Positions 5,108-19,321 are shown, counted from the stretch's first letter. The stretch: 20,468 bases of DNA from Candidatus Woesearchaeota archaeon (GCA_964619325.1 CAZUEL010000005.1:19770-40237), one strand, 5' to 3'. Numbers and translations: made by a program. Notes: generated by a model not told the origin, from the sequence alone.

Positions 5108-5700
5108 TGGCCAGCAAGAAAAAATTGCGTAAAACAGGTAGGCGGAGACCGGCAAGAAACCTTTTATCCAAAGTTAAACCCGCCGTTGGGCGGAAAGTGA
5201 GGGGTGCTAAGAAATCAGGCTTATTCTGGAAGTTGTTCAAAAAACAAAAAGATGCGGGCCTGGCGGTGCAGGCGCAGCCTAGAGCGCCGCAACGGGTTAG
5301 AAATATCAGAAGCCAGCTCGATGAACTGCTCGAGTTGGTAAATGAAAAAGGCAGGATTACGTTGAGCGAAATATCATCAAAATTTAAGATTGACCACACA
5401 CTTGCGGAAAGCTGGGCAAAGATTTTGGAGGACGCAAAGCTGGCCGAGCTACACTATCCCGCGGTGGGCGAGCCAGACCTGATAAAGGCGGGCTACGATG
5501 AAGAACAGAGAAAAGCGGTAGAAAAGAAAAAGGCCGAGGCGAAAGCCAAACCGTTCTTCAAGTTTTCGTTTGGCGGACCCAAGATGGTAACAGAAGCCGC
5601 GAAAAAGCCAGTAATTGCCGCCGCGCGCAAGCGGCAATCAAATAAGTCAAACAAATCTAATAAAAACGGGAGGAAGGGCGTATGGCCGTGGAAGTTCTAG
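5107..5700 (+). CDS. Basic protein of unknown function with a central helical, possibly winged-helix, segment; it occupies the accessory 'X' position upstream of the pilus ATPase
   Basis: The ATG shares its A with the upstream TAA (gtaATGg). It has Lys/Arg-rich N- and C-terminal tails (MASKKKLRKTGRRRPARN... and ...RKRQSNKSNKSNKNGRKG). The central segment is LDELLELVNEKGRITLSEISSKFKIDHTLAESWAKILEDAKLAELHY. It overlaps the ATPase gene by 19 nt. Confidence 0.6.
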   Translation: MASKKKLRKTGRRRPARNLLSKVKPAVGRKVRGAKKSGLFWKLFKKQKDAGLAVQAQPRAPQRVRNIRSQLDELLELVNEKGRITLSEISSKFKIDHTLAESWAKILEDAKLAELHYPAVGEPDLIKAGYDEEQRKAVEKKKAEAKAKPFFKFSFGGPKMVTEAAKKPVIAAARKRQSNKSNKSNKNGRKGVWPWKF

Positions 5701-7199
5701 AAAAATATTCTGTGAGCCTGCAGGGCGCGACAGCACAGATTACGATAGTCCGCGGAAAAGATTACGCTGCAACTTATGAGATAGCGCTGCCCAGCATTGA
5801 GGCCGGCACGAAGGCGCTGCTATCTAGTATAAAGGATAAGCTCGTTACCGAGATCACCGTGGCACCGCGTGAGATTTTTGACCCAAAGACCGTTGACGTA
5901 CTGAGAGACCAGTTCAGTGAGCGGGCAGGCAAGCTTCTCACCGAGAGTGTTCCCGGGCTGTCGGAGCAAGACAAGACGCAGATGATAGTCTACCTGCTCA
6001 ATGAGACACTCGGTTTAGGAATTTTAGAGTATCTGTTCGCAGATGCATACTTAGAAGAAGTTGTTGTGAACTCATCAAAGGAGCCGGTCTGGATCTACCA
6101 CAAAATTCATGGCTGGCTGAAAACAAACATCACAATTCCCGATGAATCACAGATTGCAAATTACGCATCCATAATCGCCCGCCGTGTTGGCCGGCAGATT
6201 ACCACACTCGACCCGCTGCTCGATGCACACCTCGTAACAGGTGACAGAGCAAATGCGACGCTGTTTCCAATATCCACGCATGGCAACACACTGACGATAA
6301 GAAAGTTTGCAAGGAAACCGTGGACAGTTACAGATTTGATAATTAACAAAACACTTTCTTCGGAAGTTGCGGCACTCATCTGGCTGACCATGCAGTACGA
6401 AGGCAACATAATCGTCTCTGGTGGAACTGCGACAGGCAAGACATCATTCCTGCAAACCTGCCTGCCATTTATACAGCCAAACCACAGAATTATATCCGTC
6501 GAGGATACGCGCGAGTTGCTGCTACCGGAATTTTTGCACTGGGTTCCTATGACTACGAGAGAGGCAAATCCTGAGGGCAAGGGTGAGATAACAATGCTTG
6601 ACCTAGTTTTGAATTCATTGAGAATGAGGCCGGACCGTATTGTGGTCGGCGAGATAAGGCGGAAGGAGCAGGCCGAGGTTCTGTTTGAGGCGATGCACAC
6701 CGGCCACTCTGTTTACAGCACACTGCACGCGGACACCGCAGAGCAGACGATCAGCCGGCTCACGAACCCACCAATCAATGTTCCAAAGACACAGTTAGAC
6801 ATGATAGACCTGCTCGTAGTGATGTTCAGGGACAGGAGAAAAGGTTTCAGGCGTGCAATAGAAATTGCAGAAATAATTTCCGTTGGCGGCGAAGGAAGTG
6901 AGGTAAGCCTGCAGCCCAACATATTATATCGCTGGCGGCCGGCGGGCGACAAGATTGCAGAGCACAAGCCATCAGTCAAGCTGTTTGAGAAGCTCGGCCT
7001 CTACACCGGGCTCTCGGAGACGCAGCTCAAAGAGGACTTGAAAAATAAGCAGAAAATTCTTGAGTGGATGGCCAAAAATAATGTGACTGACCTGCAAATG
7101 GTCGGAAAAATTATGGCCGAGTACTACAAGGATGAGCAGGCAATCATCAGCGCAGCACTCAAAAACAAAAAACCCGAAACGATTTTTGGAGGTGTGTAA
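5682..7199 (+). CDS. Type II/IV secretion-family ATPase (FlaI/TadA/PilB-like) pilus assembly ATPase
   Basis: It carries Walker A GGTATGKTS, an Asp box ISVEDTRELLL, Walker B RPDRIVVGEIR and a His box TGHSVYSTLHAD. The purine-rich stretch gggaggaaggg lies just upstream of the ATG. Confidence 0.95.
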   Translation: MAVEVLEKYSVSLQGATAQITIVRGKDYAATYEIALPSIEAGTKALLSSIKDKLVTEITVAPREIFDPKTVDVLRDQFSERAGKLLTESVPGLSEQDKTQMIVYLLNETLGLGILEYLFADAYLEEVVVNSSKEPVWIYHKIHGWLKTNITIPDESQIANYASIIARRVGRQITTLDPLLDAHLVTGDRANATLFPISTHGNTLTIRKFARKPWTVTDLIINKTLSSEVAALIWLTMQYEGNIIVSGGTATGKTSFLQTCLPFIQPNHRIISVEDTRELLLPEFLHWVPMTTREANPEGKGEITMLDLVLNSLRMRPDRIVVGEIRRKEQAEVLFEAMHTGHSVYSTLHADTAEQTISRLTNPPINVPKTQLDMIDLLVVMFRDRRKGFRRAIEIAEIISVGGEGSEVSLQPNILYRWRPAGDKIAEHKPSVKLFEKLGLYTGLSETQLKEDLKNKQKILEWMAKNNVTDLQMVGKIMAEYYKDEQAIISAALKNKKPETIFGGV

Positions 7200-8093
7200 T
7201 TGGTAAAGGCTGTAAAAATACCATTCCTGCCAGTACCATTGAGAGAGGCAAGGAAGTCCATACATACATTGATTGGGGCAGGAGGAAGGTTAAGCGATCT
7301 CGTCCCAAGCCTTGGTTTTAACCTTAAACAAGCAGACATAGACATAAGCCCACGCGAGTACGCAGCGATAGTTGTGTTTTCAGCAATTTTTTACGGCCTG
7401 ATGTTTACATTCCTATTTCTGTTTTTTGGCATTCTGTTGAAAAATAAAATGTTCATGGGCCTGTCGCCAATGGTAGGCCTACTCGGGGCGTTCATGATAA
7501 CGTTTTATCAGCTGTCCTACCCACGTGTCCTGCTTGCACAGAAAGTTGCGAACGTGGAGCGAAATCTTATTTTTGCGGCCAAGAATCTGCTCGTGCAGGT
7601 TTACGCTGGCATCCCATTATTTGATGCGGTCACAAACATCGCGAACGCAGACTTTGGTGCGGTATCAACAGAGTTCCAGAAAGCGGTGAAGGAGATGAAG
7701 GGTGGCAAGCCAATCGAGCAGGCTCTCGAAGATTTGGCGATGAGAAATCCCTCTATTTATTTCCGGCGCGTGGTTGGGCAGCTTGCCTCTGGGATAAAGT
7801 CCGGCGGCCGGCTTGCGGATGTGCTGCGTTCAATTATTGATTATCTTTCATCAGAACAAATGTTGCAGGTGCGGCGTTATGGCTCTGTATTAAATCCACT
7901 GGCAATGGGCTATATGCTGCTTGCAGTTATACTGCCCGCGCTTGCGGTCACGTTTATGATTGTGTTGGGATCGTTCCCTTCGATAAAGGTTGGCGAGAAC
8001 ACATTCATTGGACTGCTGTTTATCGTGACAGTTTTCCAGATCATGTATCTTGGCATCATGAAATCCAAGAGGCCAAATTTGATAGGTGGTTAA
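7200..8093 (+). CDS. T2SSF-domain pilus platform membrane protein (TadB/TadC / FlaJ-like, single domain)
   Basis: A TTG start immediately follows the ATPase TAA. The cytoplasmic T2SSF-like segment is VYAGIPLFDAVTNIA...MKGGKPIEQALEDLAMRNPS...SGIKSGGRLADVLRSI, flanked by transmembrane helices. Confidence 0.85.
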   Translation: MVKAVKIPFLPVPLREARKSIHTLIGAGGRLSDLVPSLGFNLKQADIDISPREYAAIVVFSAIFYGLMFTFLFLFFGILLKNKMFMGLSPMVGLLGAFMITFYQLSYPRVLLAQKVANVERNLIFAAKNLLVQVYAGIPLFDAVTNIANADFGAVSTEFQKAVKEMKGGKPIEQALEDLAMRNPSIYFRRVVGQLASGIKSGGRLADVLRSIIDYLSSEQMLQVRRYGSVLNPLAMGYMLLAVILPALAVTFMIVLGSFPSIKVGENTFIGLLFIVTVFQIMYLGIMKSKRPNLIGG

Positions 8094-9074
8094 ATGGCGT
8101 ACAGACTACTCTCCGCAGTTTACCCCGCGAATTTCAAGAACAAAGTCCGTGGGTTGTTGCAGTTTACAAACCTAAAAATAGAGGTAGGCCGGTTCATCGG
8201 TATCAGCCTTGCCTTTAGTTTGGGCGCGGCAGTTGCAGCCGCGTTTAATTTGTTTGTTGTTTTCAGGATTCCTATTTGGGTTGTATTGCCGGTAGTTTTT
8301 GTGGCGATGCAGCTTGGAACGTATGGCTGGCTCTCGCTTGCCGCGGATAAGAAAGGGGAATTGATCGTAGCAGTCCTGCCGGAGGCGCTTCAGATGATGG
8401 CAACAAACATAAAATCTGGCCTGACAATTGACCGCGCAGTCATAATGTCCGCGCGCCCGGAGTTCGGTTCGCTTGCAAATGAGTTGAAGTCGGTCAGTAG
8501 GGAAGTAGTTGCAGGCACGCCATTTGAAACAGCACTCTTCAACATGACAAAAAGGGTGCGCTCAAAGGTTCTCGAAAGGACGGTCAGTTTGATTGTTGAG
8601 GGCATACGCTCCGGCGGTAAGCTTGCGGAATTGTTGGAGCAGACCGCGAAGGACCTACAGGACCAGCAGGTGTTACAGAAGGAAATTTCAGCGAATGTTG
8701 GCAGTTACGCGTTGTTTATATTTATCGCTGCCGCGCTCGGTGCGCCGCTCCTGTTCGGCCTGTCATCATTCATAATTCAAGTCCTGTCCAGCCAGCTCTC
8801 TATTACAACGCCACTGGCAACCTCGCTTGGCTCTGTTGGCCTGTCAGCAGCCGCGGGTGGCGTGCACATCGACCCAAAGTTCGTAGTATATTTCTCAATC
8901 ATACTGCTCTCGCTGACAAGCATATTTGCCAGCTTAATTATTGGAATAATTAGCGCGGGGAGCGAGAAGGCAGGCTATAAGTACATCCCCATAGTTCTGG
9001 CTTGCTCGATGGCGGTATTTTTCATAACGAGGCATGTCATCACAAAAATATTTGGGCATTTGCTCAGAATTTAA
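8094..9074 (+). CDS. Second T2SSF-domain pilus platform membrane protein (TadB/TadC / FlaJ-like)
   Basis: The ATG directly abuts the upstream TAA. The segment MMATNIKSGLTIDRAVIMSA...VAGTPFETALFNMTKRV...EGIRSGGKLAELLEQTAKDL lies between multiple transmembrane helices. Confidence 0.85.
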   Translation: MAYRLLSAVYPANFKNKVRGLLQFTNLKIEVGRFIGISLAFSLGAAVAAAFNLFVVFRIPIWVVLPVVFVAMQLGTYGWLSLAADKKGELIVAVLPEALQMMATNIKSGLTIDRAVIMSARPEFGSLANELKSVSREVVAGTPFETALFNMTKRVRSKVLERTVSLIVEGIRSGGKLAELLEQTAKDLQDQQVLQKEISANVGSYALFIFIAAALGAPLLFGLSSFIIQVLSSQLSITTPLATSLGSVGLSAAAGGVHIDPKFVVYFSIILLSLTSIFASLIIGIISAGSEKAGYKYIPIVLACSMAVFFITRHVITKIFGHLLRI

Positions 9075-9657: not shown

Positions 9658-9844
9658 GGGGCTGTAGTCTAACTTGGTCACTAATCAAGCCGAGGCTTGA
9701 CAGCCAGAAACTAGCCAAACTTCGTTTGTCGATTGTTTGGCGTAGCCAGACAGGACTCGCGGTTTGGGACCGTGCGATCCAGGTTCAAAGCAGACGAAGT
9801 ATGCTTTAGGCAAACTTTGTTTGATGTAAATCCTGGCAGCCCCA
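9658..9844 (+). tRNA. tRNA-Pro(TGG) with two introns (D-loop about 72 nt, T-loop about 41 nt)
   Basis: I folded this by hand.
- Acceptor stem: GGGGCTG/CAGCCCC, discriminator A.
- D stem: GTCT (9667-9670) / GGAC (9753-9756).
- Anticodon stem: CGCGG/CCGTG, with loop TTTGGGA (anticodon TGG 9765-9767, G37).
- T stem: CCAGG (9779-9783) / CCTGG (9832-9836).
- T loop: TTCAAA...T.
- Proposed exons: 9658-9680, 9753-9789 and 9831-9844, which sum to 74 nt.
- Junctions are ambiguous by 1-2 nt. No CCA is encoded. Confidence 0.8.
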
Positions 9845-9845
9845 C

Positions 9846-10352
9846 TCATTTTTCAGAATATTCCTTAAGAATCAAGTATGGCAGGCCAGCTCGCGTTTGT
9901 GCTCCTTGCCAGCCCTCAACACCACGATAGCTCCTGCCGTCAAAATTCCCACTGACAAATAATCTTAGGTCTATGGTCGCACCTTCGCGTGGTTGTAATT
10001 GAATCAGATGCGCGCAAATCACCATAATTGCCAGTAAATCTATGTCCTTTGTGCCGTGTGGTTTGTCTATTTGCCTTGCACAGCTGCCAACAACTGCTGA
10101 GCGGGCTAAATGTGGTCGTTGTGTTGGTTCTTTATAATCTAATGAACGTGGCCTAAATCGCATGAATGTCATACGTTCTTCACGCGTATCAGTATCAAAT
10201 GTTGAAGGGATTTCACCTAACCACTGAATTGCCACCCGAACATTTTCCGCATTCGGTTCGCCTAAGTGCGAATAAAGTGCTTGCAGACTATCACTTACCA
10301 TTTGGTATTGCGGGGGCGTTAATTTATAAAACTTGTCACCACCAGCCACCAA
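9846..10352 (-). CDS. Hypothetical protein with a minimal nucleotidyltransferase (Pol-beta superfamily, MNT-like) motif and an unusual N-terminal extension of about 85 aa
   Basis: VVGSCARQIDKPHGTKDIDLLAI fits the pattern hG[GS]-x9-13-Dh[DE]h, and a later ATIDLRLFV strand could supply the third acidic residue. The TTG start is taken from the track; GVG or ATG alternatives lie downstream. A TATA-like TTATATA sits upstream on the minus strand. The stop codon lies 2 nt from the 3' end of tRNA-Pro. Confidence 0.5.
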   Translation of the reverse strand: MVAGGDKFYKLTPPQYQMVSDSLQALYSHLGEPNAENVRVAIQWLGEIPSTFDTDTREERMTFMRFRPRSLDYKEPTQRPHLARSAVVGSCARQIDKPHGTKDIDLLAIMVICAHLIQLQPREGATIDLRLFVSGNFDGRSYRGVEGWQGAQTRAGLPYLILKEYSEK

Positions 10353-10400
10353 TTAGTCATTCTTAAATACCTATATAATTTAATATGTTCGAGGTAAAAA

Positions 10401-10649
10401 ATGGTTGCAAATTTAAGAAAGCACGAACACATGGGCTTGCTGATGATATTCCTCGGGGCAAGTTGGCTTGGCCTCGGCCTGTACAGCACGCTGCTCGCGG
10501 CGAACAGGCTGCTGCTAGCTCAGGTGCCATTAATCGCGGGAAGAGAGTTGTTGATATTCCCGATATTTTATGGCTTGGGTGCACTTCTAGTCACGTTTGG
10601 CAACATAGAGCTACGGGAAGCCCTACCCGGTAAGAACAGGGGGCTATAG
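10401..10649 (+). CDS. Small predicted membrane protein (two hydrophobic helices)
   Basis: It contains MGLLMIFLGASWLGLGLYSTLLAA and LLIFPIFYGLGALLVTF. I preferred it over the overlapping frame 10385-10633, which encodes low-complexity, non-protein-like sequence. TATATAATTTA lies about 25 nt upstream. Confidence 0.45.
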   Translation: MVANLRKHEHMGLLMIFLGASWLGLGLYSTLLAANRLLLAQVPLIAGRELLIFPIFYGLGALLVTFGNIELREALPGKNRGL

Positions 10650-10658
10650 GAGGTAGTT

Positions 10659-10808
10659 ATGGCAAGAGGACGAGATTCGTTATTGAGAGAGATCCGCGGC
10701 GCTGTCAGTTCCAGCGCCGAGATTGAGTACGGCATAAAAGAGTTCCTGCAGGGCCTGCTCGTCGGATTTATAATAGGATTCCTAGTAGCCACTCAGCTAG
10801 TTAGGTAA
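10659..10808 (+). CDS. Small (49 aa) tail-anchored hypothetical protein
   Basis: It is below the length cut-off of the ORF track. GGAGGT lies 5 nt upstream of the ATG. The translation is MARGRDSLLREIRGAVSSSAEIEYGIKEFLQGLLVGFIIGFLVATQLVR, with a C-terminal hydrophobic helix. A T-rich tract follows. Confidence 0.35.
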   Translation: MARGRDSLLREIRGAVSSSAEIEYGIKEFLQGLLVGFIIGFLVATQLVR

Positions 10809-10836
10809 TTGTTTTCTTTTTTTTAGTTTTTGGTTT
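10809..10836 (+). terminator. Oligo-T terminator-like tract
   Basis: The sequence ttgttttcttttttttagtttttggttt follows the small ORF pair. Confidence 0.4.
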
Positions 10837-10916
10837 CGGTAGGATCATCTTGAACCGTTTTCAAAGGCAGCTTCGGCGATGGAAAGTTATTTAAGTGTTT
10901 CCATTTAATTTTTAGC

Positions 10917-11222
10917 ATGCCGCATTCGAGCTTAGCTGGTGGATTTAGTGTAGTAGAAGTTAAGACCACCTATGGTAGCTTGGTTCAACTGTTTGCTGGG
11001 CGGTTCGATGACAAAAAATTACACATATTGGGATGGAGAGATTCGGATGCCACAGCATATTTTTCCGAGAGCGAGTGTGCGTCTGGTGATTTTGGGTTAC
11101 TAATACTGCCAAAGGGCAGAAAATCGCTTGCGGATTTGGTAAAGGGTGACGTTCTCAGAATGACAAGACACGATGGAAAGCCGTACGAATTAGATGGCGC
11201 AAAGTATGTGCGTCAAACCTAA
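10917..11222 (+). CDS. Hypothetical protein (101 aa), no recognisable family
   Basis: This is an intact ORF with a TATA-like TTATTTAAG about 27 nt upstream. Its composition is protein-like, but I recognise no motifs. Confidence 0.5.
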   Translation: MPHSSLAGGFSVVEVKTTYGSLVQLFAGRFDDKKLHILGWRDSDATAYFSESECASGDFGLLILPKGRKSLADLVKGDVLRMTRHDGKPYELDGAKYVRQT

Positions 11223-11224
11223 TT

Positions 11225-11241
11225 GTTAATTGCCAATTAAC
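11225..11241. repeat. Perfect 17-nt palindrome GTTAATTG-C-CAATTAAC
   Basis: The 8-nt arms are exact reverse complements. It lies 3 nt after the stop at 11222 and about 30 nt upstream of the tRNA-Lys TATA box. Confidence 0.6.
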
Positions 11242-11271
11242 TCTTCAAAATACTTTGGGTGTTCCGAATTG

Positions 11272-11280
11272 TTTTTAAAG
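11272..11280 (+). promoter_or_regulatory. TATA-box-like element (TTTTTAAAG) for the tRNA-Lys/tRNA-Ala pair
   Basis: It ends 24 nt upstream of the tRNA-Lys 5' end at 11304. Confidence 0.5.
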
Positions 11281-11303
11281 CACAGTTTAAGTTTCTTCTA
11301 AGT

Positions 11304-11528
11304 GGGTCCGTAGCTCAGCTTGGTTATGCAAGCAGATTGAATTTGCTGCAGCCAAAGAGAGCGCTTGCCTCTTAACAAAGAGTGAAAGCAAGATGTCGAG
11401 GGTTCAAAAGTACAGCCCCTTTCTTCGCGAAGAAAGGTGCTCTACGAAACCACCAAAGAAGGCTGTTGCGATCTGCGATCGCACCAAGTACTTCACGGTT
11501 TCGGTACGAGAAATTCCCTCCGGGCCCG
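11304..11528 (+). tRNA. tRNA-Lys(CTT) with three introns (D-loop about 32 nt, anticodon-loop 12 nt, T-loop about 106 nt)
   Basis: I folded this by hand.
- Acceptor stem: GGGTCCG/CGGGCCC (one T-G pair), discriminator G.
- D stem: GCTC (11313-11316) / GAGC (11359-11362).
- Anticodon stem: CTTGC (11364-11368) / GCAAG (11388-11392), with loop CTCTTA..A (anticodon CTT 11371-11373).
- T stem: GAGGG (11398-11402) / CCCTC (11516-11520).
- Proposed exons: 11304-11326, 11359-11374, 11387-11407 and 11514-11528, which sum to 75 nt.
- Junctions are ambiguous by 1-2 nt. Confidence 0.8.
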
Positions 11529-11534
11529 CTTTAT

Positions 11535-11608
11535 GGGCTGGTAGTTAAACTCGGTATAATGCCCGCATGGCATGCGGGAGGCTAGGGGTTCAAATCCCCT
11601 CCAGTCCA
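11535..11608 (+). tRNA. tRNA-Ala(GGC), intron-less
   Basis: It forms a 74-nt cloverleaf. The acceptor stem is GGGCTGG/CCAGTCC and includes the G3:U70 alanine identity pair. The anticodon stem is CCCGC/GCGGG with loop ATGGCAT. The T arm is AGGGG-TTCAAAT-CCCCT. It lies only 6 nt downstream of tRNA-Lys. Confidence 0.92.
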
Positions 11609-11621
11609 TCTGTGATAAAAC

Positions 11622-12056
11622 ATGGCAGTAAAAATTGTGGTCGGTGGTTTAGTAGTTAAGGGTAAAGAGCTAGCCATCGTCCGCGAGAAAAAGAAAGAAA
11701 TTGCCGGCCTCTGGAACCTTCCGGTTGGCGGGCTGGATGAGAATGAAAAAATCGCTGATGGTGCAAGGAGAGAGATCGAGGAGGAAACCGGCTTGAAAGT
11801 AAAGCTGGAAAAACTGGTTGGTGTCTACCAAAAACCACGAAGGCCGGATGGCACAAACGTGCTGAAATTTATTTTCCTTGCCTCTGTTGTCAGTGGAACG
11901 CTGAAATGCCCGCCAGATTTGCAAGAGGTCAAGTGGATTTCATTTGAAGAGTTGAAAAAAGTCCCGGACTCGCAGTTGAGAGAGGCAGCAGTTATTCAGA
12001 TGGCTGTCCAGGATTATGAAACCAACTCTGCGGTTTCGTTGAAATACTATTCATGA
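11622..12056 (+). CDS. Nudix hydrolase
   Basis: GGLDENEKIADGARREIEEETGL is a complete Nudix box (Gx5Ex7REUxEExGU). Confidence 0.9.
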   Translation: MAVKIVVGGLVVKGKELAIVREKKKEIAGLWNLPVGGLDENEKIADGARREIEEETGLKVKLEKLVGVYQKPRRPDGTNVLKFIFLASVVSGTLKCPPDLQEVKWISFEELKKVPDSQLREAAVIQMAVQDYETNSAVSLKYYS

Positions 12057-12098
12057 ATGATTAGCAATGTATATAAATCTATATTTTAATTTTACGCC

Positions 12099-12479
12099 AT
12101 GGCTCGCAAACAAAAGCCGAAGGATGGCGCGTTCAAGAGTCTGCTCAAGTACGAGCTGCACGTTATCGGCCACTGGCTTTTCCTGCTAGGGGTTGCGCTA
12201 TCAGTTGTGTTCGGTTTGACGTTCAGTGACAACGGCTATGTCGCCTCGATCCTGGTTGTGCTGGGAATTGTGGTTGGCCTGCTTAACGTGAAAGCGAGTG
12301 AGACGCACCAGTTCCTGCTCGCAGCTTTGGTTCTAATGGTTTCAGCGCAGACCCTGAAGTTTGTCCCCTTAGTTGGTGAGGCGCTGTTAAATGTTTTGGA
12401 GTACATCGTAATTCTTGTCGCCCCCGCTGCCGCAATAATCTCACTGCTGGCAATTAGGAAGCTGGCCAGCGGTAAGTAG
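12099..12479 (+). CDS. Small integral membrane protein (hypothetical)
   Basis: It has three to four hydrophobic helices, for example HWLFLLGVALSVVFGL and ILVVLGIVVGLL. TATATAAAT lies about 25 nt upstream. Confidence 0.7.
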   Translation: MARKQKPKDGAFKSLLKYELHVIGHWLFLLGVALSVVFGLTFSDNGYVASILVVLGIVVGLLNVKASETHQFLLAALVLMVSAQTLKFVPLVGEALLNVLEYIVILVAPAAAIISLLAIRKLASGK

Positions 12480-12481
12480 TA

Positions 12482-12490
12482 TTTTAAATA
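12482..12490 (+). promoter_or_regulatory. TATA-box-like element (TTTTAAATA) for tRNA-Ile
   Basis: It ends 23 nt upstream of the tRNA 5' end at 12513. Confidence 0.5.
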
Positions 12491-12512
12491 GTAATTTTCG
12501 ACAGTTAGTTAC

Positions 12513-12781
12513 GGGCCCATAGCTTAGTCCGGTGGAGCGCCGCTCTGATACGGCAGCTTTTCTTTCTCCCAAGAAAATGCAAAGCATTTTCTGGGCGCAG
12601 AAAAATCTTCGGATTTTTCTTGCGTTGAAAGAAAGAAACGCTCCCGGGCATCTAAAGAAAGAAACGGTGGGATTTGAAAATCCCACAAACTTTATTTGTC
12701 CGAGACTCAGCAAGGCGGAGGTCGGCTGTTCGAACATCGCAGAAAGCTTCGCTTTCGCGAGTGAGAGTCAGCCTGGGCCCA
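12513..12781 (+). tRNA. tRNA-Ile(GAT) with two introns (canonical 37/38 intron of 162 nt; T-loop intron of about 33 nt)
   Basis: I folded this by hand.
- Acceptor stem: GGGCCCA/TGGGCCC, discriminator A.
- D stem: GCTT/GAGC.
- Anticodon stem: CCGCT (12540-12544) / GGCGG (12714-12718), with loop CTGATA..A (anticodon GAT 12547-12549).
- Splice-site geometry: CTGA (12545-12548) can pair with TCAG (12707-12710), leaving 3-nt bulges TAC and CAA at the predicted splice sites. This is the classic bulge-helix-bulge geometry.
- T stem: GGCTG (12724-12728) / CAGCC (12769-12773).
- Proposed exons: 12513-12550, 12713-12735 and 12769-12781, which sum to 74 nt. Confidence 0.8.
12628..12666 (+). repeat. Two exact 13-nt direct repeats AAAGAAAGAAACG inside the tRNA-Ile intron
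   Basis: The copies lie at 12628-12640 and 12654-12666. A polypyrimidine tract, GCTTTTCTTTCTC (12556-12568), near the 5' end of the intron is largely complementary to either copy. Confidence 0.7.
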
Positions 12782-12819
12782 CTCGTCATATTTTTAAACT
12801 AGATTTGTTATTTAGAAAA

Positions 12820-13407
12820 ATGGCCGCTAAAGGGTTTCCAATCAAGATGCGGGCAAGGCTGCACGGGCCAGCCCACAGCCACCGCAGGGGCGAGTCTGAC
12901 CCGATCTCCAGAATAGAGCACGCGCAGGCCAGGCTGGAAAAAGTTGCAGATGAAGTCCTGACCGAAGTCGCGGCGCTCGAAAAAGTCAAGAAATCTTACC
13001 TAAAAAGGCCGCAGTTCCCGTGGATGACTGGCCAGCTGTCCATTCTTACTTTGCAGGACTTTGTCGGTGCGGCGTTTGGCGCGATGTTTTTTGTGATGAC
13101 GCAGGAGGTCTGGGATGTTGCAAAACGGCTTAATGTATTTGGCATGCTGGCGTTGGTGGTGATAGCATTTTTGCTTGGATTTTCGCTCGTTTATCTGTCA
13201 CGCCGGAGAAAATTCATAGACGAGCAGTTGCACATGCACGCGATCACGAGGGCGGTAGAGCTCTACGGTGTCTCATTCGTGACCGCGCTTGCATTCATAC
13301 TAATCTTAGGGACAGCACCAGCTTCTGGCCAGATCCTGCCGCAGGCCATTCTCATAACGTTGCCGGCTGTTGTGTCGGCGGCGACTGCGGATTTATTGTT
13401 CTTTTAA
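12820..13407 (+). CDS. Integral membrane protein (hypothetical; possibly DUF2391-like)
   Basis: I moved the start to the first in-frame ATG downstream of tRNA-Ile (12820). The track ORF begins at 12532, inside the tRNA. ATTTTTAAAC lies about 25 nt upstream. The C-terminal half has four hydrophobic helices (FVGAAFGAMFFVMT, MLALVVIAFLLGFSLVYL, etc.). Confidence 0.7.
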   Translation: MAAKGFPIKMRARLHGPAHSHRRGESDPISRIEHAQARLEKVADEVLTEVAALEKVKKSYLKRPQFPWMTGQLSILTLQDFVGAAFGAMFFVMTQEVWDVAKRLNVFGMLALVVIAFLLGFSLVYLSRRRKFIDEQLHMHAITRAVELYGVSFVTALAFILILGTAPASGQILPQAILITLPAVVSAATADLLFF

Positions 13408-13515
13408 GTTGCGAAATTGATTTAATTGTAATAAATATACAAGTTTATGATAATTACGGATATATATAGATTTATATATGTGAGAATTTTTAAGCCTCTC
13501 GCGAAAACAGAAAAC

Positions 13516-15036
13516 ATGGCCACAGTCGCAAAGCTAGCTGATAGTTTGCAGGACAACGAGATTCTCGTCCTGAAAGCCCTGAAAAAGAACAAAGCCAGCA
13601 ATGCCGAGCTGCAAACACACACAAAACTCGACCAGTCCACGGTGGCAAGGTCTGCGCTCTGGCTGCAAAATAAAAATCTTATTAAAACCGCAGAGACAAA
13701 AACAGTTTTTGTGTCCCTCACAAAATTGGGAAAAACTTACAGAAATACTTACTTGCCCGAGAGAAAGTTCCTGCTTGCCCTGAAAAAAGGTCCGATAGAT
13801 CTCATGCATCTTGCCAAAGACACCGAGTTGGATGAGAACGAATCCCGCGTCGCGCTGGGCCACTGGAAGGAGCAGGGCGCGGTCAGCATCAAAAATGGAA
13901 AAGTCGAGCTAAAGGTTCCGGACCATCTGAACAAGAAAACGCTGGAAGAGGAGTTCATTGAGAAATTTACAAAATCTGATGAGATCGAGCATGAATCCCT
14001 GGCGCCGGAATACAAAGAGGCGTACAACAAACTGAGAAAGCGCGGCCTCGCATCACAAGAGGAAAAAACCGAGAGAATTTTTGAAATCACTGACACTGGC
14101 GCCAAGGTTGCAGATGCAGTTAAGCCCGGCGAGAAGATTGGCCAGCTAACATCAGATATAATCAAAAGCGGCGAGTGGCAGAAGAAGCCATTCCGCAGGT
14201 TTGATGTCGAGGGCCACGTCCCGGAATTATTCATCGGCAAGAAGCAGGCGTACGCAAGATTTTTGGAAGAGGTGAAGGATGAACTGGTCGCTCTTGGATT
14301 TGAGGAAATGACTGGCCCGCTTGTTGAACTCTCATTCTTCAACAACGACGCGCTCTACATGCCGCAGGACCACCCTGCGCGCGGGATTCATGACATCTAC
14401 TCAGTTAAAGAACCAAAATACGGAAGTCTTGAAAACTACAAACATTTTCTGAAAGCTGTGAAAGAGGCACACGAAACCGGCGGCAAGACCGGAAGCACAG
14501 GCTGGCAAGTCCCATTCAGCGAACAGGAGACGGCAAAGCTTGTGTTAAGGACGCAGGGGACTGCGTTGTCTGCAAGAACGTTGATGCAGAAAGATTTGAA
14601 AATTCCAGGCGCGTATTTCGCGGTCGCGCGTGTGTTCCGCCCAGATGTTTTGGATGCCACGCATCTTTTAGAATTTAACCAGACTGAAGGAATTGTCTTA
14701 GATGAAAGTGCGAACTTGAAAAAATTGCTGGGCCTGCTTGCAGAGTTCGCAAAGAAAATTACCGGTTCCAACAAAGTGAGATTCAGGCCGCACTACTTCC
14801 CATATACTGAGCCGTCCATCGAGGTTGATATCTGGAGCCCGGCACTAAACAATTGGGTTGAAGCTTTAGGGGCTGGCATCCTCCGCCCAGAGGTCACACT
14901 GCCGCTCGGCGTGAAAGTTCCCGTGCTGGCATGGGGCATCGGTGTTGACCGGCTTTTCATGATTCGCGAAAACATCTCAGACATCAGGCAGCTGTTCAGC
15001 CAGGATGTGGACTGGCTCAGGCGGAGGAAAATCTAA
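13516..15036 (+). CDS. pheS: Phenylalanine--tRNA ligase alpha subunit (archaeal/eukaryal type)
   Basis: It carries class II motifs (FRPDVLDATHLLEFNQTEG; GAGILRPEV; AWGIGVDRL) and an N-terminal winged-helix-like extension. The start is set at ATG 13516 (MATVAKLAD...) rather than the AT-rich upstream extension from 13447. Confidence 0.93.
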   Translation: MATVAKLADSLQDNEILVLKALKKNKASNAELQTHTKLDQSTVARSALWLQNKNLIKTAETKTVFVSLTKLGKTYRNTYLPERKFLLALKKGPIDLMHLAKDTELDENESRVALGHWKEQGAVSIKNGKVELKVPDHLNKKTLEEEFIEKFTKSDEIEHESLAPEYKEAYNKLRKRGLASQEEKTERIFEITDTGAKVADAVKPGEKIGQLTSDIIKSGEWQKKPFRRFDVEGHVPELFIGKKQAYARFLEEVKDELVALGFEEMTGPLVELSFFNNDALYMPQDHPARGIHDIYSVKEPKYGSLENYKHFLKAVKEAHETGGKTGSTGWQVPFSEQETAKLVLRTQGTALSARTLMQKDLKIPGAYFAVARVFRPDVLDATHLLEFNQTEGIVLDESANLKKLLGLLAEFAKKITGSNKVRFRPHYFPYTEPSIEVDIWSPALNNWVEALGAGILRPEVTLPLGVKVPVLAWGIGVDRLFMIRENISDIRQLFSQDVDWLRRRKI

Positions 15037-16688
15037 TGCCAAACATTGAAATCTCACTTTCAGATTTGAAGAAGCTGGTTGGGCCAAAGATGCCTACAGA
15101 CTTGGAAAAACTAGAGCCATACATCTGGATGGTGAAAAGTGAGATTGAGGGCTTGGAAGGTGATGTGCTGACAATAAAGATCGGCGATACAAACAGGCCC
15201 GACCTCTGGTGTGCCGAAGGAATCGCGCGTGAATTGCGGGGCGCGCTGGAAATTGAAAAGGGCTTGAAAGAGTACAAAGCTAAATCCTCAGATTACAAAG
15301 TTTACGTTCACGCAAAGCTGGAAAAGATTCGCCCCTACATTGCCTGCGTTGTCGTGAAAAATGTAAAACTCACAAATGAGTTAATCAAACAAATCATGCA
15401 GCAGCAGGACAAGATTGACGGCACGTATGGCAGGAAACGGGCAAAGACATCAATTGGTTTGTACAAATTTGATTTGCTGAAGTGGCCACTGAAATATGCG
15501 GTTACAAAACCAAATGAAAATGCGTTTGTGCCACTAAGCTTTTCTGATAAACTTACACCAAAACAAATTCTGGAAAAACATCCGAAGGGCCTGGAATACC
15601 AACACTTGCTGAAAGGCCTGCCAGAATATCCAATCTTCCTTGACGCTGATGGGAAAGTTCTATCGATGCCGCCAATCATAAACTCAAATGACTTGGGGCA
15701 GATTGATGAGGGCGTAAATAATATTTTAGTCGAAGTCACTGGCACAGATTATGATGCAGTCAATAATGTTTTGCGGATAATGGCGATGACGTTTGCAGAC
15801 CGCGGGGGCGAGCTGCACCAGGTGGCTATTGATTATACAACACGAAAGCAGGATGTCACGCCGCACTTTGACACAAAACACTTTGAAATCAAGGCAGAAG
15901 ATGTTAGCAAATTGCTTGGCGAAAGATTGACTGCTGAAGATGTCGTCCGCGCGCTGCAAAAGGCAAGATACTCCTGCCTTGCTGAGAAAAATGTCGTCCA
16001 TGTTACCGTGCCCGCTTATCGGACAGATATCATGCACCAAGTGGATATTTACGAAGACGTTGCAATCTTCCACGGGTTTGATAGGTTCAAGCCGGAAACC
16101 ATGGCACTGCCTTCTGTTGGAAAATTATCTGACGTCGAGAAATTATCCCGCAAGATTCGTGAGCTCTGCATCGGCACCGGGGCGCAGGAAGTGATGAATT
16201 TCAGTCTGACAAATGCCGAGTCGCTGTTCGGCCACATGAATAACCCAGTTGAAGATGTGATTGAGATTGAGAATCCTGTTTCATTCACGTTCTCTGTTTT
16301 GCGGAATGGCCTGCTGCCATCGCTACTGGAGTTTTTGTCACATAATACGACAAAGGAATTCCCGCAGAAAATATTTGAGGTTGGCGATGTCGTCGTGGCA
16401 AATCCAAAATCCGAGGTTGGCTCGGACACAGTTCGCAAGTTGGCTTTTGCAATCTCGGACACAAACGCAAACTTCACGGATGCGAAGCAGGCTTTGGAAT
16501 CTGTCGCAAAAGGCATGGGCTGGAAATTAAGCTATAAAGAATTGGAACATTCGAGCTTTATTGCTGGCCGGTGTGCTGCGATAATTAAAGAGGGGAAAGA
16601 AATTGGGGTTATTGGGGAGATCGCGCCGAAGGTTTTGTTGAATTGGGGATTAGGGATGCCTACAGTGGCTTTTGAATTTGCTCTTTAG
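15036..16688 (+). CDS. pheT: Phenylalanine--tRNA ligase beta subunit (archaeal/eukaryal type)
   Basis: The ATG overlaps the pheS TAA by 1 nt (taATG). The 550-aa length and B3/4- and B5-like regions (GDTNRPDLWCAEGIAREL, MPPIINSNDLG) are typical of archaeal PheT. Confidence 0.93.
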   Translation: MPNIEISLSDLKKLVGPKMPTDLEKLEPYIWMVKSEIEGLEGDVLTIKIGDTNRPDLWCAEGIARELRGALEIEKGLKEYKAKSSDYKVYVHAKLEKIRPYIACVVVKNVKLTNELIKQIMQQQDKIDGTYGRKRAKTSIGLYKFDLLKWPLKYAVTKPNENAFVPLSFSDKLTPKQILEKHPKGLEYQHLLKGLPEYPIFLDADGKVLSMPPIINSNDLGQIDEGVNNILVEVTGTDYDAVNNVLRIMAMTFADRGGELHQVAIDYTTRKQDVTPHFDTKHFEIKAEDVSKLLGERLTAEDVVRALQKARYSCLAEKNVVHVTVPAYRTDIMHQVDIYEDVAIFHGFDRFKPETMALPSVGKLSDVEKLSRKIRELCIGTGAQEVMNFSLTNAESLFGHMNNPVEDVIEIENPVSFTFSVLRNGLLPSLLEFLSHNTTKEFPQKIFEVGDVVVANPKSEVGSDTVRKLAFAISDTNANFTDAKQALESVAKGMGWKLSYKELEHSSFIAGRCAAIIKEGKEIGVIGEIAPKVLLNWGLGMPTVAFEFAL

Positions 16689-17869: not shown

Positions 17870-19321
17870 CTATTTAGCGGAATGGTCGCCTTCGGCTCCC
17901 ATAAACGGAAAGAAAATAACTTCCTTGATGCTCGCTTGATTCGTCAGCAGCATCACAAGCCTGTCGATCCCTATGCCCTGCCCGCCAGTTGGGGGCAGGC
18001 CATACTCCAGCGCGCGCAGGAAGTCTTCGTCAATCGCCTCCAGCCATTTTTCATCAGCCTTGGTGCGGGACTTGACCTGCTCTTCCAGAAATTTCCTTTG
18101 TAAAATTGGGTCGTTTAATTCAGAGTATGCGTTGCCGAGCTCCATCCCGCAGACAAACGGCTCAAACCTCTCAACAAGATGCGGATATTTTCTGTGCAAT
18201 TTGCAGAGCGGCGTAGTTTCGCAAGGGTGGTGCATAATAATTGTCGGTTGGATGATTGTTTTGTCAAAGCTCTCAAATATCGCGTTAATCAGCTCGCCCC
18301 TTGTGGAATTTTTATCCGCCTCGATTTTTTTATCAGAACAACATTTTCTAAGTTCGGAGTCGGACATTTTTTCGACATCAAGCTTCAGGTATTTTTTTAT
18401 TGCATCCGTCATCGACAGCCTCTCCCACTTGCCCACGTCAATCTTGTGGCCCTGCCACTCAATCTTTGTCGTGCCGAGAACTTTTTTGCAAACAGATTTA
18501 ATTAATTCCTCAAATAAATTCATCATCTGCCCATAATCGTAGTACGCGATGTAATATTCAATCTGTGTGAATTCAGGATTGTGCCGGACATCTATGGACT
18601 CGTTCCTGAAATCCTTTGCAAATTCATAGACGCGCTCAAACCCGCCGGCAATCAGTTTTTTCAGGTAAATTTCGTTTGAGGTCCTCAGGTAGACATCCAT
18701 CTTCAAATCATTCATGAAAGTTTTGAACGGCTTGGCTGCTGCGCCGCCGTAGATTGGCTGCAAAACAGGGGTCTCAACTTCCAAAAAGTTTTTTTCGTTT
18801 AGGAACTCGCGGATTGCGTCAATAATTTTTGTGCGCGTGATAAAAATTTCTTTCACTTTTGGATTCATAATCAAGTCAACGTATCTCTGCCGGTATCTTA
18901 TCTCTGCGTCCTTGAGGCCATACCACTGGCTCGGCAGATGGCGGAGTGATTTTGTAAGCACCACGAGTTTTTCTGCTTTCACTGAAACTTCACCGCGCTT
19001 TGTTTTTGCGGCTTTTCCTTCCACGCCAACAAAATCGCCGGCCTCTAAATATTTCAGCAAATCATAATCTTTTCCAAGCGCATCCTGTGCCAGCCAGAGC
19101 TGTACATCTCCAGAGCCATCCCGCAAATCGCAGAACGCGAGCTTACCATGTTCTCTAATCGTCATCAACCTGCCAGCCACCGAAACTTTCTTGCCTTCCA
19201 GCTTTGCAAAATTAGAAATTATTTCTGCGGCGTGATGTGTCTGGTTAAATGAGTAAGGGTATGGTTCTATGTTTGCTTTTCGCAGGGCATTTAGTTTTTC
19301 CAGCCTTTCGGGGTCAGCCAT
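17870..19321 (-). CDS. lysS: Lysine--tRNA ligase, class II
   Basis: It has an N-terminal OB-fold anticodon-binding region. Class II motifs are present: FRNESIDVRHNPEFTQIEYYIAYYDY (motif 2) and GLPPTGGQGIGIDRLVMLLT (motif 3). Confidence 0.93.
   Translation of the reverse strand: MADPERLEKLNALRKANIEPYPYSFNQTHHAAEIISNFAKLEGKKVSVAGRLMTIREHGKLAFCDLRDGSGDVQLWLAQDALGKDYDLLKYLEAGDFVGVEGKAAKTKRGEVSVKAEKLVVLTKSLRHLPSQWYGLKDAEIRYRQRYVDLIMNPKVKEIFITRTKIIDAIREFLNEKNFLEVETPVLQPIYGGAAAKPFKTFMNDLKMDVYLRTSNEIYLKKLIAGGFERVYEFAKDFRNESIDVRHNPEFTQIEYYIAYYDYGQMMNLFEELIKSVCKKVLGTTKIEWQGHKIDVGKWERLSMTDAIKKYLKLDVEKMSDSELRKCCSDKKIEADKNSTRGELINAIFESFDKTIIQPTIIMHHPCETTPLCKLHRKYPHLVERFEPFVCGMELGNAYSELNDPILQRKFLEEQVKSRTKADEKWLEAIDEDFLRALEYGLPPTGGQGIGIDRLVMLLTNQASIKEVIFFPFMGAEGDHSAK

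Follow-up and report, generated by a model that had tools for sequence, protein, structure and literature searches.

The 20,468-nt stretch of DNA analysed here (hereafter the window) comes from Candidatus Woesearchaeota archaeon (GCA_964619325.1, CAZUEL010000005.1:19770-40237) and contains genes for tRNA-Pro(TGG), tRNA-Lys(CTT), tRNA-Ala(GGC) and tRNA-Ile(GAT). Only tRNA-Ala(GGC) is continuous. The other three are broken by seven inserts, two in Pro, three in Lys and two in Ile, and taking these out leaves tRNAs of 74, 75 and 74 nt, respectively (Table 1). With a probability of roughly 0.88, judged from sequence, the three interrupted loci are functional tRNA genes carrying two to three bulge-helix-bulge (BHB) introns each, drawn from families that have spread among genes and loop sites.

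Interrupted tRNA genes and their predicted splice junctions

Ordinary gene finders overlook the interrupted genes. ARAGORN, run plain or with its intron options (-i, -io, -ifro, up to 300 nt), missed Pro, Lys and Ile alike. Beyond tRNA-Ala(GGC), which both programs place at 11534-11610, the Rfam tRNA model returned just a spurious 20.5-bit partial match at 12513-12599 (E-values up to 10). The mechanical annotation track instead has open reading frames (ORFs) at 9733-9930, 11382-11585 and 12532-13407, all overlapping the tRNA genes; in the last of these, the part conserved in the relative L001 starts at about residue 63 of the reading from the ATG at 12820, past tRNA-Ile. On reading the sequence, however, GC-rich halves of the acceptor stem and T arm are visible across each of the three gene spans. 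Given the spliced Pro and Ile sequences, ARAGORN called tRNA-Pro(TGG) and tRNA-Ile(GAT). It called tRNA-Lys(CTT) on a 76-nt version in which the T-loop boundary is one base off, so the 75-nt tRNA-Lys(CTT) cloverleaf rests on a strict scanner and not on ARAGORN.

This strict scanner searched for a cloverleaf with up to three loop introns and required U8, A14, GG, U33, R37, G53-C61 and a GC-rich acceptor stem. It found exactly four genes in the window (Pro, Lys, Ile and Ala) and, in approximately 1 Mb of other DPANN loci, plausible tRNAs only. Thus, the gene finding cannot be put down to chance. Two less constrained searches were dropped: a loose cloverleaf scanner with three free introns produced many AT-rich false positives, and an unconstrained BHB scan of the precursors gave hundreds of chance motifs and was unable to locate introns alone. 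The original prediction had proposed a single continuous gene, inserts numbering two, three and two in the others, cloverleaves of 74-75 nt after their removal, and standard callers that miss the genes and place spurious ORFs over them; ARAGORN on the spliced sequences and the strict scanner agree with it on the genes, and the misses and all three ORFs were confirmed.

All exons are colinear within 187-269 nt, so the genes are neither split nor permuted, and none of the window tRNA genes encodes a CCA end. The sequence TTTAAA lies at -30/-31 of all three interrupted genes, and T-runs lie downstream of tRNA-Pro and tRNA-Ile. tRNA-Ala(GGC), which is without a promoter box of its own, is probably co-transcribed with tRNA-Lys.

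The introns fall at three kinds of site, 20a/21 in the D loop (Pro and Lys), 37/38 in the anticodon loop (Lys and Ile) and 59/60 in the T loop (Pro, Lys and Ile), with no D-loop intron in Ile and no anticodon-loop intron in Pro. This bears out the earlier proposals of a T-loop insert in all three genes, of a D-loop insert in two, and of the canonical 37/38 site for two of the seven inserts; the T-loop position, formerly given as about 58-60, is refined to 59/60, that is, between nucleotides 6 and 7 of the 7-nt loop. Sites 20a/21, 59/60 and 37/38 are alike in lying one nucleotide ahead of the 3' strand of the closing stem, and at all seven introns the last loop nucleotide is the first of the 3' exon. 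Structurally, therefore, the canonical 37/38 site is reproduced at 59/60 and 20a/21.

Under the BHB substrate rule, cleavage falls after the second nucleotide of each 3-nt bulge, and we assumed this position throughout (arrows below and in Table 1). All seven inserts are able to form a BHB or relaxed BHB. The two Ile junctions are strict. At Ile 37/38 the outer helix h is CCGCU/GGCGG and the central helix H is CUGA/UCAG, with bulges UA↓C and CA↓A; at Ile 59/60 H is UUCG/UGAG, with four of four pairs, two being G-U. In both D-loop introns H is complete (UUGG/CCAR), but three unpaired nucleotides stand between H and the D stem. H is relaxed, with three of four pairs, at Pro 59/60, Lys 59/60 and Lys 37/38. 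The register of Pro and Lys 59/60 was set by homologous introns (in L080, TTCAAT↓GCAGAC) and not by unique sequence; a second anchor was the constant 5' end of intron family F1 (described below), which directly follows loop nucleotide 6. In the relative L069 the tRNA-Pro(TGG) D loop, AACTTGGCTA, is uninterrupted, and this supports the boundary chosen for the Pro D-loop intron of the window.

We measured the complementarity between intron and host loop across the clade. Intron ends were fixed by cloverleaf geometry alone in all tRNA genes found on related contigs, and the H score was the number of pairs that loop nucleotides 1-4 make with intron nucleotides -6 to -3. The mean H was 3.51 of 4 for anticodon-loop introns (n = 47; shifted registers 1.6-1.85), 3.22 of 4 for T-loop introns (n = 41; shifted registers 1.8-2.15) and 3.30 of 4 for D-loop introns (n = 27; shifted registers 2.1-2.9), the D-loop register figures being weaker as the 5' end needed optimising. 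An H test anchored on the F1 5' motif was unreliable, since the offset from motif to splice site varies, and was replaced by these geometry-defined boundaries. The intron tail also follows the host anticodon, reading UCAG for Ile, GAAG for Lys(UUU) and GGAG for Trp, and a host-matched tail is what splicing-competent junctions require.

From these structures we infer the following pathway. Each interrupted gene would be transcribed from its TATA box at -30. In the precursor, insert nucleotides -6 to -3 would pair with the first four nucleotides of the host loop (the 17-19 region of the D loop, 32-35 of the anticodon loop, 54-57 of the T loop) to form the central 4-bp helix H, with the host stem as the outer helix. 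Both splice sites would then lie in 3-nt bulges, such that the 3' exon starts at the last loop nucleotide. EndA would cut both bulges and an RtcB-type ligase would join the exons, and the three arms could be processed independently.

Table 1. Positions in the window of the tRNA genes, TATA-like boxes, predicted introns and intron sub-features, all on the plus strand. h, H and h' are the helices of the predicted junction fold; arrows mark assumed cleavage positions.
Feature	Position	Length and site	Details
TATA-like box TTTAAAAA	9627-9634		31 nt upstream of tRNA-Pro
tRNA-Pro(TGG) gene	9658-9844	74 nt spliced	exons 9658-9679, 9752-9789, 9831-9844; exons match L069/L091 tRNA-Pro(TGG)
Pro D-loop intron	9680-9751	72 nt, 20a/21	H = UUGG/CCAG, bulges UC↓A and AC↓A, h' = CUA/UAG, h weak
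Pro T-loop intron	9790-9830	41 nt, 59/60	family F2; h = T stem, H = UUCA/UGUA (3/4 pairs)
TATA-like box TTTAAA	11274-11279		30 nt upstream of tRNA-Lys
tRNA-Lys(CTT) gene	11304-11528	75 nt spliced	exons 11304-11325, 11358-11374, 11387-11408, 11515-11528; strict scanner
Lys D-loop intron	11326-11357	32 nt, 20a/21	H = UUGG/CCAA, bulges UU↓A and AG↓A
Lys anticodon-loop mini-intron	11375-11386	12 nt, 37/38	bulge-helix-loop type, H 3/4 pairs
Lys T-loop intron	11409-11514	106 nt, 59/60	divergent F1 copy; H = UUCA/AGAA, 3/4 pairs
Lys F1 tract Y	11418-11425		
Lys F1 tract R1	11430-11437		
Lys F1 tract J	11455-11462		
tRNA-Ala(GGC) gene	11535-11608		continuous, starts 6 nt after tRNA-Lys; ARAGORN and Rfam
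TATA-like box TTTAAATA	12483-12490		30 nt upstream of tRNA-Ile
tRNA-Ile(GAT) gene	12513-12781	74 nt spliced	exons 12513-12550, 12713-12734, 12768-12781; ARAGORN, syntenic orthologues
Ile anticodon-loop intron	12551-12712	162 nt, 37/38	F1 copy; perfect BHB
Ile F1 tract Y	12558-12567		
Two extra hairpins	12568-12624		12568-12595 and 12596-12624, nested in P1 apical loop of Ile F1 copy
Ile F1 tract R1	12627-12638		
Ile F1 tract J	12654-12664		
Ile T-loop intron	12735-12767	33 nt, 59/60	h = T stem, bulges AA↓C and AG↓U

Intron families and their turnover

By the similarity of its proteins, the source of the window is a Woesearchaeota-like DPANN archaeon from groundwater: its PheRS-alpha (13447-15036) is 52-70% identical to proteins of groundwater metagenome-assembled genomes assigned to 'Nanobdellati', Woesearchaeota and Nanoarchaeota. 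Six relatives carry a syntenic tRNA-Ile(GAT) upstream of the same membrane-protein and PheRS genes, with near-identical exons and different introns. At 37/38 and 59/60, respectively, the introns measure 105 and 156 nt in L001, 207 and 152 nt in L003, 103 and 45 nt in L005, 99 and 29 nt in L007, and 104 and 46 nt in L002, which has a further D-loop intron of 81 nt; the range in these five is thus 29-207 nt. L004 has a 13-nt intron at 37/38, none at 59/60 and, like the four others without one, none in the D loop. The intron sets of tRNA-Pro(TGG) in L069 and L091 also differ from that of the window, L069 having a 103-nt 37/38 intron that is absent from the window gene. tRNA-Ala(GGC), continuous in the window, is interrupted in L069 and L091 by introns of 101 and 109 nt in the D loop and of 39 and 43 nt in the T loop. 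Among 60 DPANN loci, T-loop introns occurred in the clade of the window only. Of 73 distinct tRNA genes on the related contigs, 60 had introns, 42 had a T-loop intron and 14 had three, an intron density that is an upper estimate because these contigs were picked for holding F1.

The long introns of the clade share a core, and define F1, a structured element of approximately 100 nt. We collected F1 by scanning a 25-nt core pattern over public metagenome contigs, which gave 57 loci, all but two of them F1 by inspection. Its first hairpin, P1, has an all-pyrimidine 5' strand and an all-purine 3' strand and is closed by GCAGC/GCUCC; beyond it come a P2 stem, a P3 hairpin of variable sequence and a tail of about 10 nt with the host-matched H3. 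P1 is 97% paired, with compensatory changes at 11 of 14 pairs, and P3 93.5% paired, with such changes at all eight. None of 500 shuffles reached the observed values for P1 and P3, and slid registers were approximately 40-50% paired. P2 is weaker (68% paired) and was put into the model by hand, as MAFFT and RNAalifold failed to align its 3' strand.

The F1 covariance model, R1, matched the window at 12551-12711 (73.5 bits) and 11410-11513 (49.2 bits, E = 2.4e-7), both within one nucleotide of the predicted intron ends. Its ten matches in the window and L001-L060 were all in the window, L001, L002, L003, L005 and L007, with none in L004, L006 or L008-L060 (about 0.85 Mb in all). On 0.42 Mb of related contigs it gave 100 matches, 86 of them distinct. 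Copies of F1 occupy the D, anticodon and T loops of approximately 20 isoacceptors, and two genes hold three copies each, tRNA-Gln(CTG) at L065 3523-3896 and tRNA-Gly(TCC) at L110 5097-5475. In these two genes the copies are about 100 nt each, one per loop, and mutually 48-71% identical. The Ile F1 copy of the window is closest to a tRNA-Ser(GGA) intron (82%), followed by its own Ile orthologues (80%) and a tRNA-Ala D-loop copy (78%).

The second family, F2, is a T-loop element of approximately 41 nt, of which the Pro 59/60 intron of the window is a member. Over 34 nt, this copy and the tRNA-Ala(CGC) T-loop intron of L080 share 91% identity, and the 5' and 3' ends of F2 are common to introns in L005, L090, L081 and L091. 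Its hosts are the T loops of Pro, Ala (CGC and GGC), Ile and Met.

Several F1 copies are in unusual settings. In L099 (6361-6457, minus strand) a copy lies outside any tRNA, in the spacer between two intron-less tRNA genes (Rfam matches at 6461-6533 and 6237-6310). L078 1-1182 is a fragment of an rRNA operon comprising the 16S 3' end, tRNA-Ala(TGC) and the 23S 5' end, and in its spacer tRNA-Ala F1 sits at about 15/16 of the D loop, the 5' strand of the D stem serving as helix H. The rule of three equivalent sites is therefore a strong tendency and not a law. Copies in L089, L095, L093/L108, L118 and L074 have no tRNA assigned to their flanks, and those in L093, L108 and L118 have GAAACTAGTTTC-like palindromes on both sides. 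The two extra hairpins nested in the Ile copy (Table 1) look like second-order insertions; stretches of 17-22 nt from them recur, exactly or nearly so, in or near the F1 copies of L094, L072 and L100, and nested hairpins of a similar kind are present in L003, L072 and L097. F1 had no match in Rfam, and its core had none in the viral contigs scanned. It was also considered as a box C/D or H/ACA RNA, which was dropped because inspection of the sequence revealed no such boxes, and as a K-turn, which was dropped because the non-bulged strand is without the GA step.

The introns would then be members of families that have spread across tRNA genes and three structurally equivalent loop sites, and not heirlooms of individual genes. 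The presence of related introns in different tRNAs and sites, together with orthologues that differ in intron content, therefore supports gain or spread over simple inheritance. The original prediction had drawn a similar conclusion from the shared T-loop site of three isoacceptors within 3 kb. Intron spread itself is upheld by the occurrence of F1 and F2 in many tRNAs and sites, but no two of the window's three T-loop introns are copies of each other, one being an F2 member, one an F1-like element and one a 33-nt hairpin unrelated to either. As far as the sequences tell, the spread is lineage-wide and not a local event within these 3 kb, and part of the recurrence of sites is structural, 20a/21 and 59/60 being mimics of 37/38.

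That structural component is what would favour introns that are real, old and vertically inherited, with shared positions imposed by the demands of the endonuclease and no transfer between genes. Independent gains would converge on 59/60 and 20a/21 for the same reason, the three T-loop introns of the window are mutually unrelated, and tRNA-Ile keeps 37/38 and 59/60 introns across six genomes. Vertical inheritance is nonetheless improbable. It does not account for one family in approximately 20 isoacceptors at D, anticodon and T sites, nor for three copies within single genes in L065 and L110, and it is at odds with the Ile F1 copy, which is nearer the tRNA-Ser intron than its Ile orthologues, and with the 91% identity of the F2 copies of window Pro and L080 Ala. 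Nearest-neighbour data already suggest that F1 and F2 copies mix hosts and sites, and orthologues differ in their introns (L004 Ile; Ala(GGC) and Pro in the window compared with L069 and L091).

The rejection of these loci by standard tRNA finders, and the many copies in which F1 and F2 are repeated, would also be expected of tRNA pseudogenes hit by small repeats resembling miniature inverted-repeat transposable elements, with inserts that are never removed. We regard this as very unlikely. The exons remain intact, yield perfect cloverleaves and have been conserved between genomes with only 52-70% identity in PheRS, even as the inserts turn over. Inserts are in sense orientation only, nearly all resolved copies are at BHB-permitting positions, each 3' tail is complementary to its own host loop, and the promoter boxes are kept. 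With inserts in approximately 60 of the 73 tRNA genes on related contigs, small genomes would be unable to lose so many. Removal of the inserts by something other than EndA (self-splicing or another nuclease), or their origin as metagenome assembly artefacts, has least in its favour and hardly merits credence: some junctions are merely relaxed BHBs and EndA was not observed in the window or the clade contigs examined, but the introns, at 12-162 nt against more than 200 nt for group I and group II introns, carry no signature of either group and match nothing in Rfam at E-values up to 10, the BHB register statistics are strong, and assemblies made independently, from several sites and projects, have the same gene structures.

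Several observations do weigh against functional genes with mobile BHB introns. By our count four of the seven window junctions are relaxed and not strict BHBs, the D-loop introns are missing a contiguous outer helix, and the Pro and Lys 59/60 register is ambiguous by 1-3 nt in A runs. No gene for EndA, the putative broad-specificity splicing endonuclease of the original prediction, was found in the window or in the clade contigs examined by tblastn, whose single match was in L021, an Aenigmatarchaeota contig. Intron-less duplicate genes may exist elsewhere in the genome, and the choice of census contigs inflates the apparent intron density.

The tRNA genes of the window adjoin genes for aminoacyl-tRNA synthetases, PheRS alpha and beta at 13447-16688, and the window also holds a class II synthetase of Asp/Asn/Lys type at 17870-19321 (minus strand). 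The order tRNA-Ile, membrane protein, PheRS is kept in L001, L003, L005 and L007. Upstream, at 5682-9074, is a cluster of a T2SSE-type ATPase and two T2SSF-type membrane proteins (a system like a type IV pilus or archaellum), and the protein at 1433-2257 has a MopE-type metal-binding motif.

The mirror repeat of F1

F1 contains a second purine tract, J, 14-15 nt after P1. Its 5'-to-3' sequence is that of the P1 purine strand taken in the 3'-to-5' direction, which makes the pair a mirror repeat. In 63 of 64 distinct copies the first A-run in J agrees with the final A-run in P1, and mirror identity is 95%, compared with 78.3 ± 1.5% when J tracts are shuffled among copies. In the 57 asymmetric copies, the mirror alignment was better than the best direct alignment in 43, equal in 14 and worse in none. 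Both window F1 copies keep the mirror rule. The pyrimidine/purine pairs of P1 switch only between C-G and U-A and never flip polarity, whereas the pairs of P3 flip freely.

Mirror symmetry cannot be produced by duplication or inversion, and the mirror covariation, hard to explain by copying, may point to selection for a three-stranded structure. The tract order pyrimidine, purine, mirrored purine defines a class II intrastrand purine-motif triplex (PMC4666352), and F1 has this order (pyrimidine, complementary purine, mirrored purine). Triplexes of this kind are reported to form in DNA and, in RNA, to be disfavoured or disputed (PMC4666352, PMC7583470). A two-state switch, in which J would lie antiparallel to the pyrimidine strand, was rejected because J mirrors the P1 purine strand and is not a direct copy of it.

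We tentatively suggest that F1 might be a 'splice cassette' that is portable and folds by itself, namely a mobile non-coding intron in which J packs on P1 as a purine-motif (R·R-Y) triple strand, although we hold this to be the less probable account of the element. In such a cassette the P1 helix might supply the inner helix of the BHB, so that perhaps only the 4-nt tail must match a new host loop. A requirement confined to that tail would explain the presence of F1 in the D, anticodon and T loops of approximately 20 tRNAs, with up to three copies per gene. The triple strand could conceivably sit in the RNA or in a single-stranded DNA intermediate of mobility; if it were a contact in RNA, it would be the first natural example. 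F1 is in any case a concrete candidate, either for a purine-motif triplex that occurs in nature or for a structure at the DNA level that drives mobility.

Comparison with known systems

Multiple BHB introns, sites 20/21 and 59/60, and 'intron transposition' are established in the Thermoproteales (PMC4090602, PMC4033280). The window genes, with two, three and two introns, are multiple-intron genes of that type, and F1 and F2 are transposed tRNA intron families in the sense of Fujishima 2010. In both systems a gene may hold as many as three BHB introns, at canonical as well as non-canonical sites, and similar introns occur across tRNA species and positions. The hosts differ, Crenarchaeota there and a Woesearchaeota-like DPANN archaeon here. 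The main family here, moreover, is approximately 100 nt long, has a conserved core, three helices that covary and a purine tract in mirror repeat, and concentrates on three structurally equivalent loop sites, all of which can be filled in one gene.

Increased tRNA disruption is known in DPANN, including Woese- and Pacearchaeota, together with incomplete tRNA sets (PMC5829648), and DPANN endonucleases comprise an epsilon2 EndA in ARMAN-1/2 and an alpha4 EndA with an L3 loop in Woese- and Pacearchaeota (PMC5829648, PMC3239211). Small genomes, many non-canonical or multiple introns, and standard tools that miss the full tRNA set are common to those cases and ours. The DPANN papers describe endonuclease types and intron counts, but no shared structured intron family. 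In the Asgard Atabeyarchaeia and Freyarchaeia, which belong to another superphylum, more than 90% of tRNA genes have introns, over half of them several, at many non-canonical sites; the part of that account available to us reports no conserved mobile family (PMC11291895).

Multi-intron tRNAs, these sites and intron transposition are thus already known from Thermoproteales, ARMAN and Asgard archaea. The rarity attached to such genes at the outset needs tempering accordingly: the multiple non-canonical introns are real, but less exotic than supposed, since 20/21 and 59/60 are listed sites (PMC4090602) and DPANN disruption has been described (PMC5829648). For annotation, the consequence is that most tRNAs of this DPANN lineage escape ordinary callers, which place false ORFs over them, and that figures for genome completeness and for 'missing tRNAs' are wrong as a result. 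For evolution, the lineage is a second example of tRNA intron proliferation, independent of the first and very clear, and F1, with 86 distinct matches in 0.42 Mb, is large enough to reconstruct the movement of archaeal introns.

A literature search found no description of an F1-like family in DPANN, and F1 is new as a large structured intron family. Archaeal tRNA-Trp introns contain a box C/D guide, a functional structured RNA within a BHB intron. F1 resembles them as a conserved structured RNA within a BHB intron; unlike them, it is without the boxes and is not tied to one tRNA. The BoxC, PIT and TMECO triplex motifs share with F1 the tract order on one strand, and are likewise repeated elements, linked to genome instability (PMC4666352). 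F1 differs from them in being A/T-rich, with T-A-A triplets and occasional C-G-G, and in lying inside predicted transcribed introns. Its second spacer, 14-15 nt long and containing conserved helices, also exceeds the short loops of 1-6 nt that characterise the class II motifs (PMC4666352).

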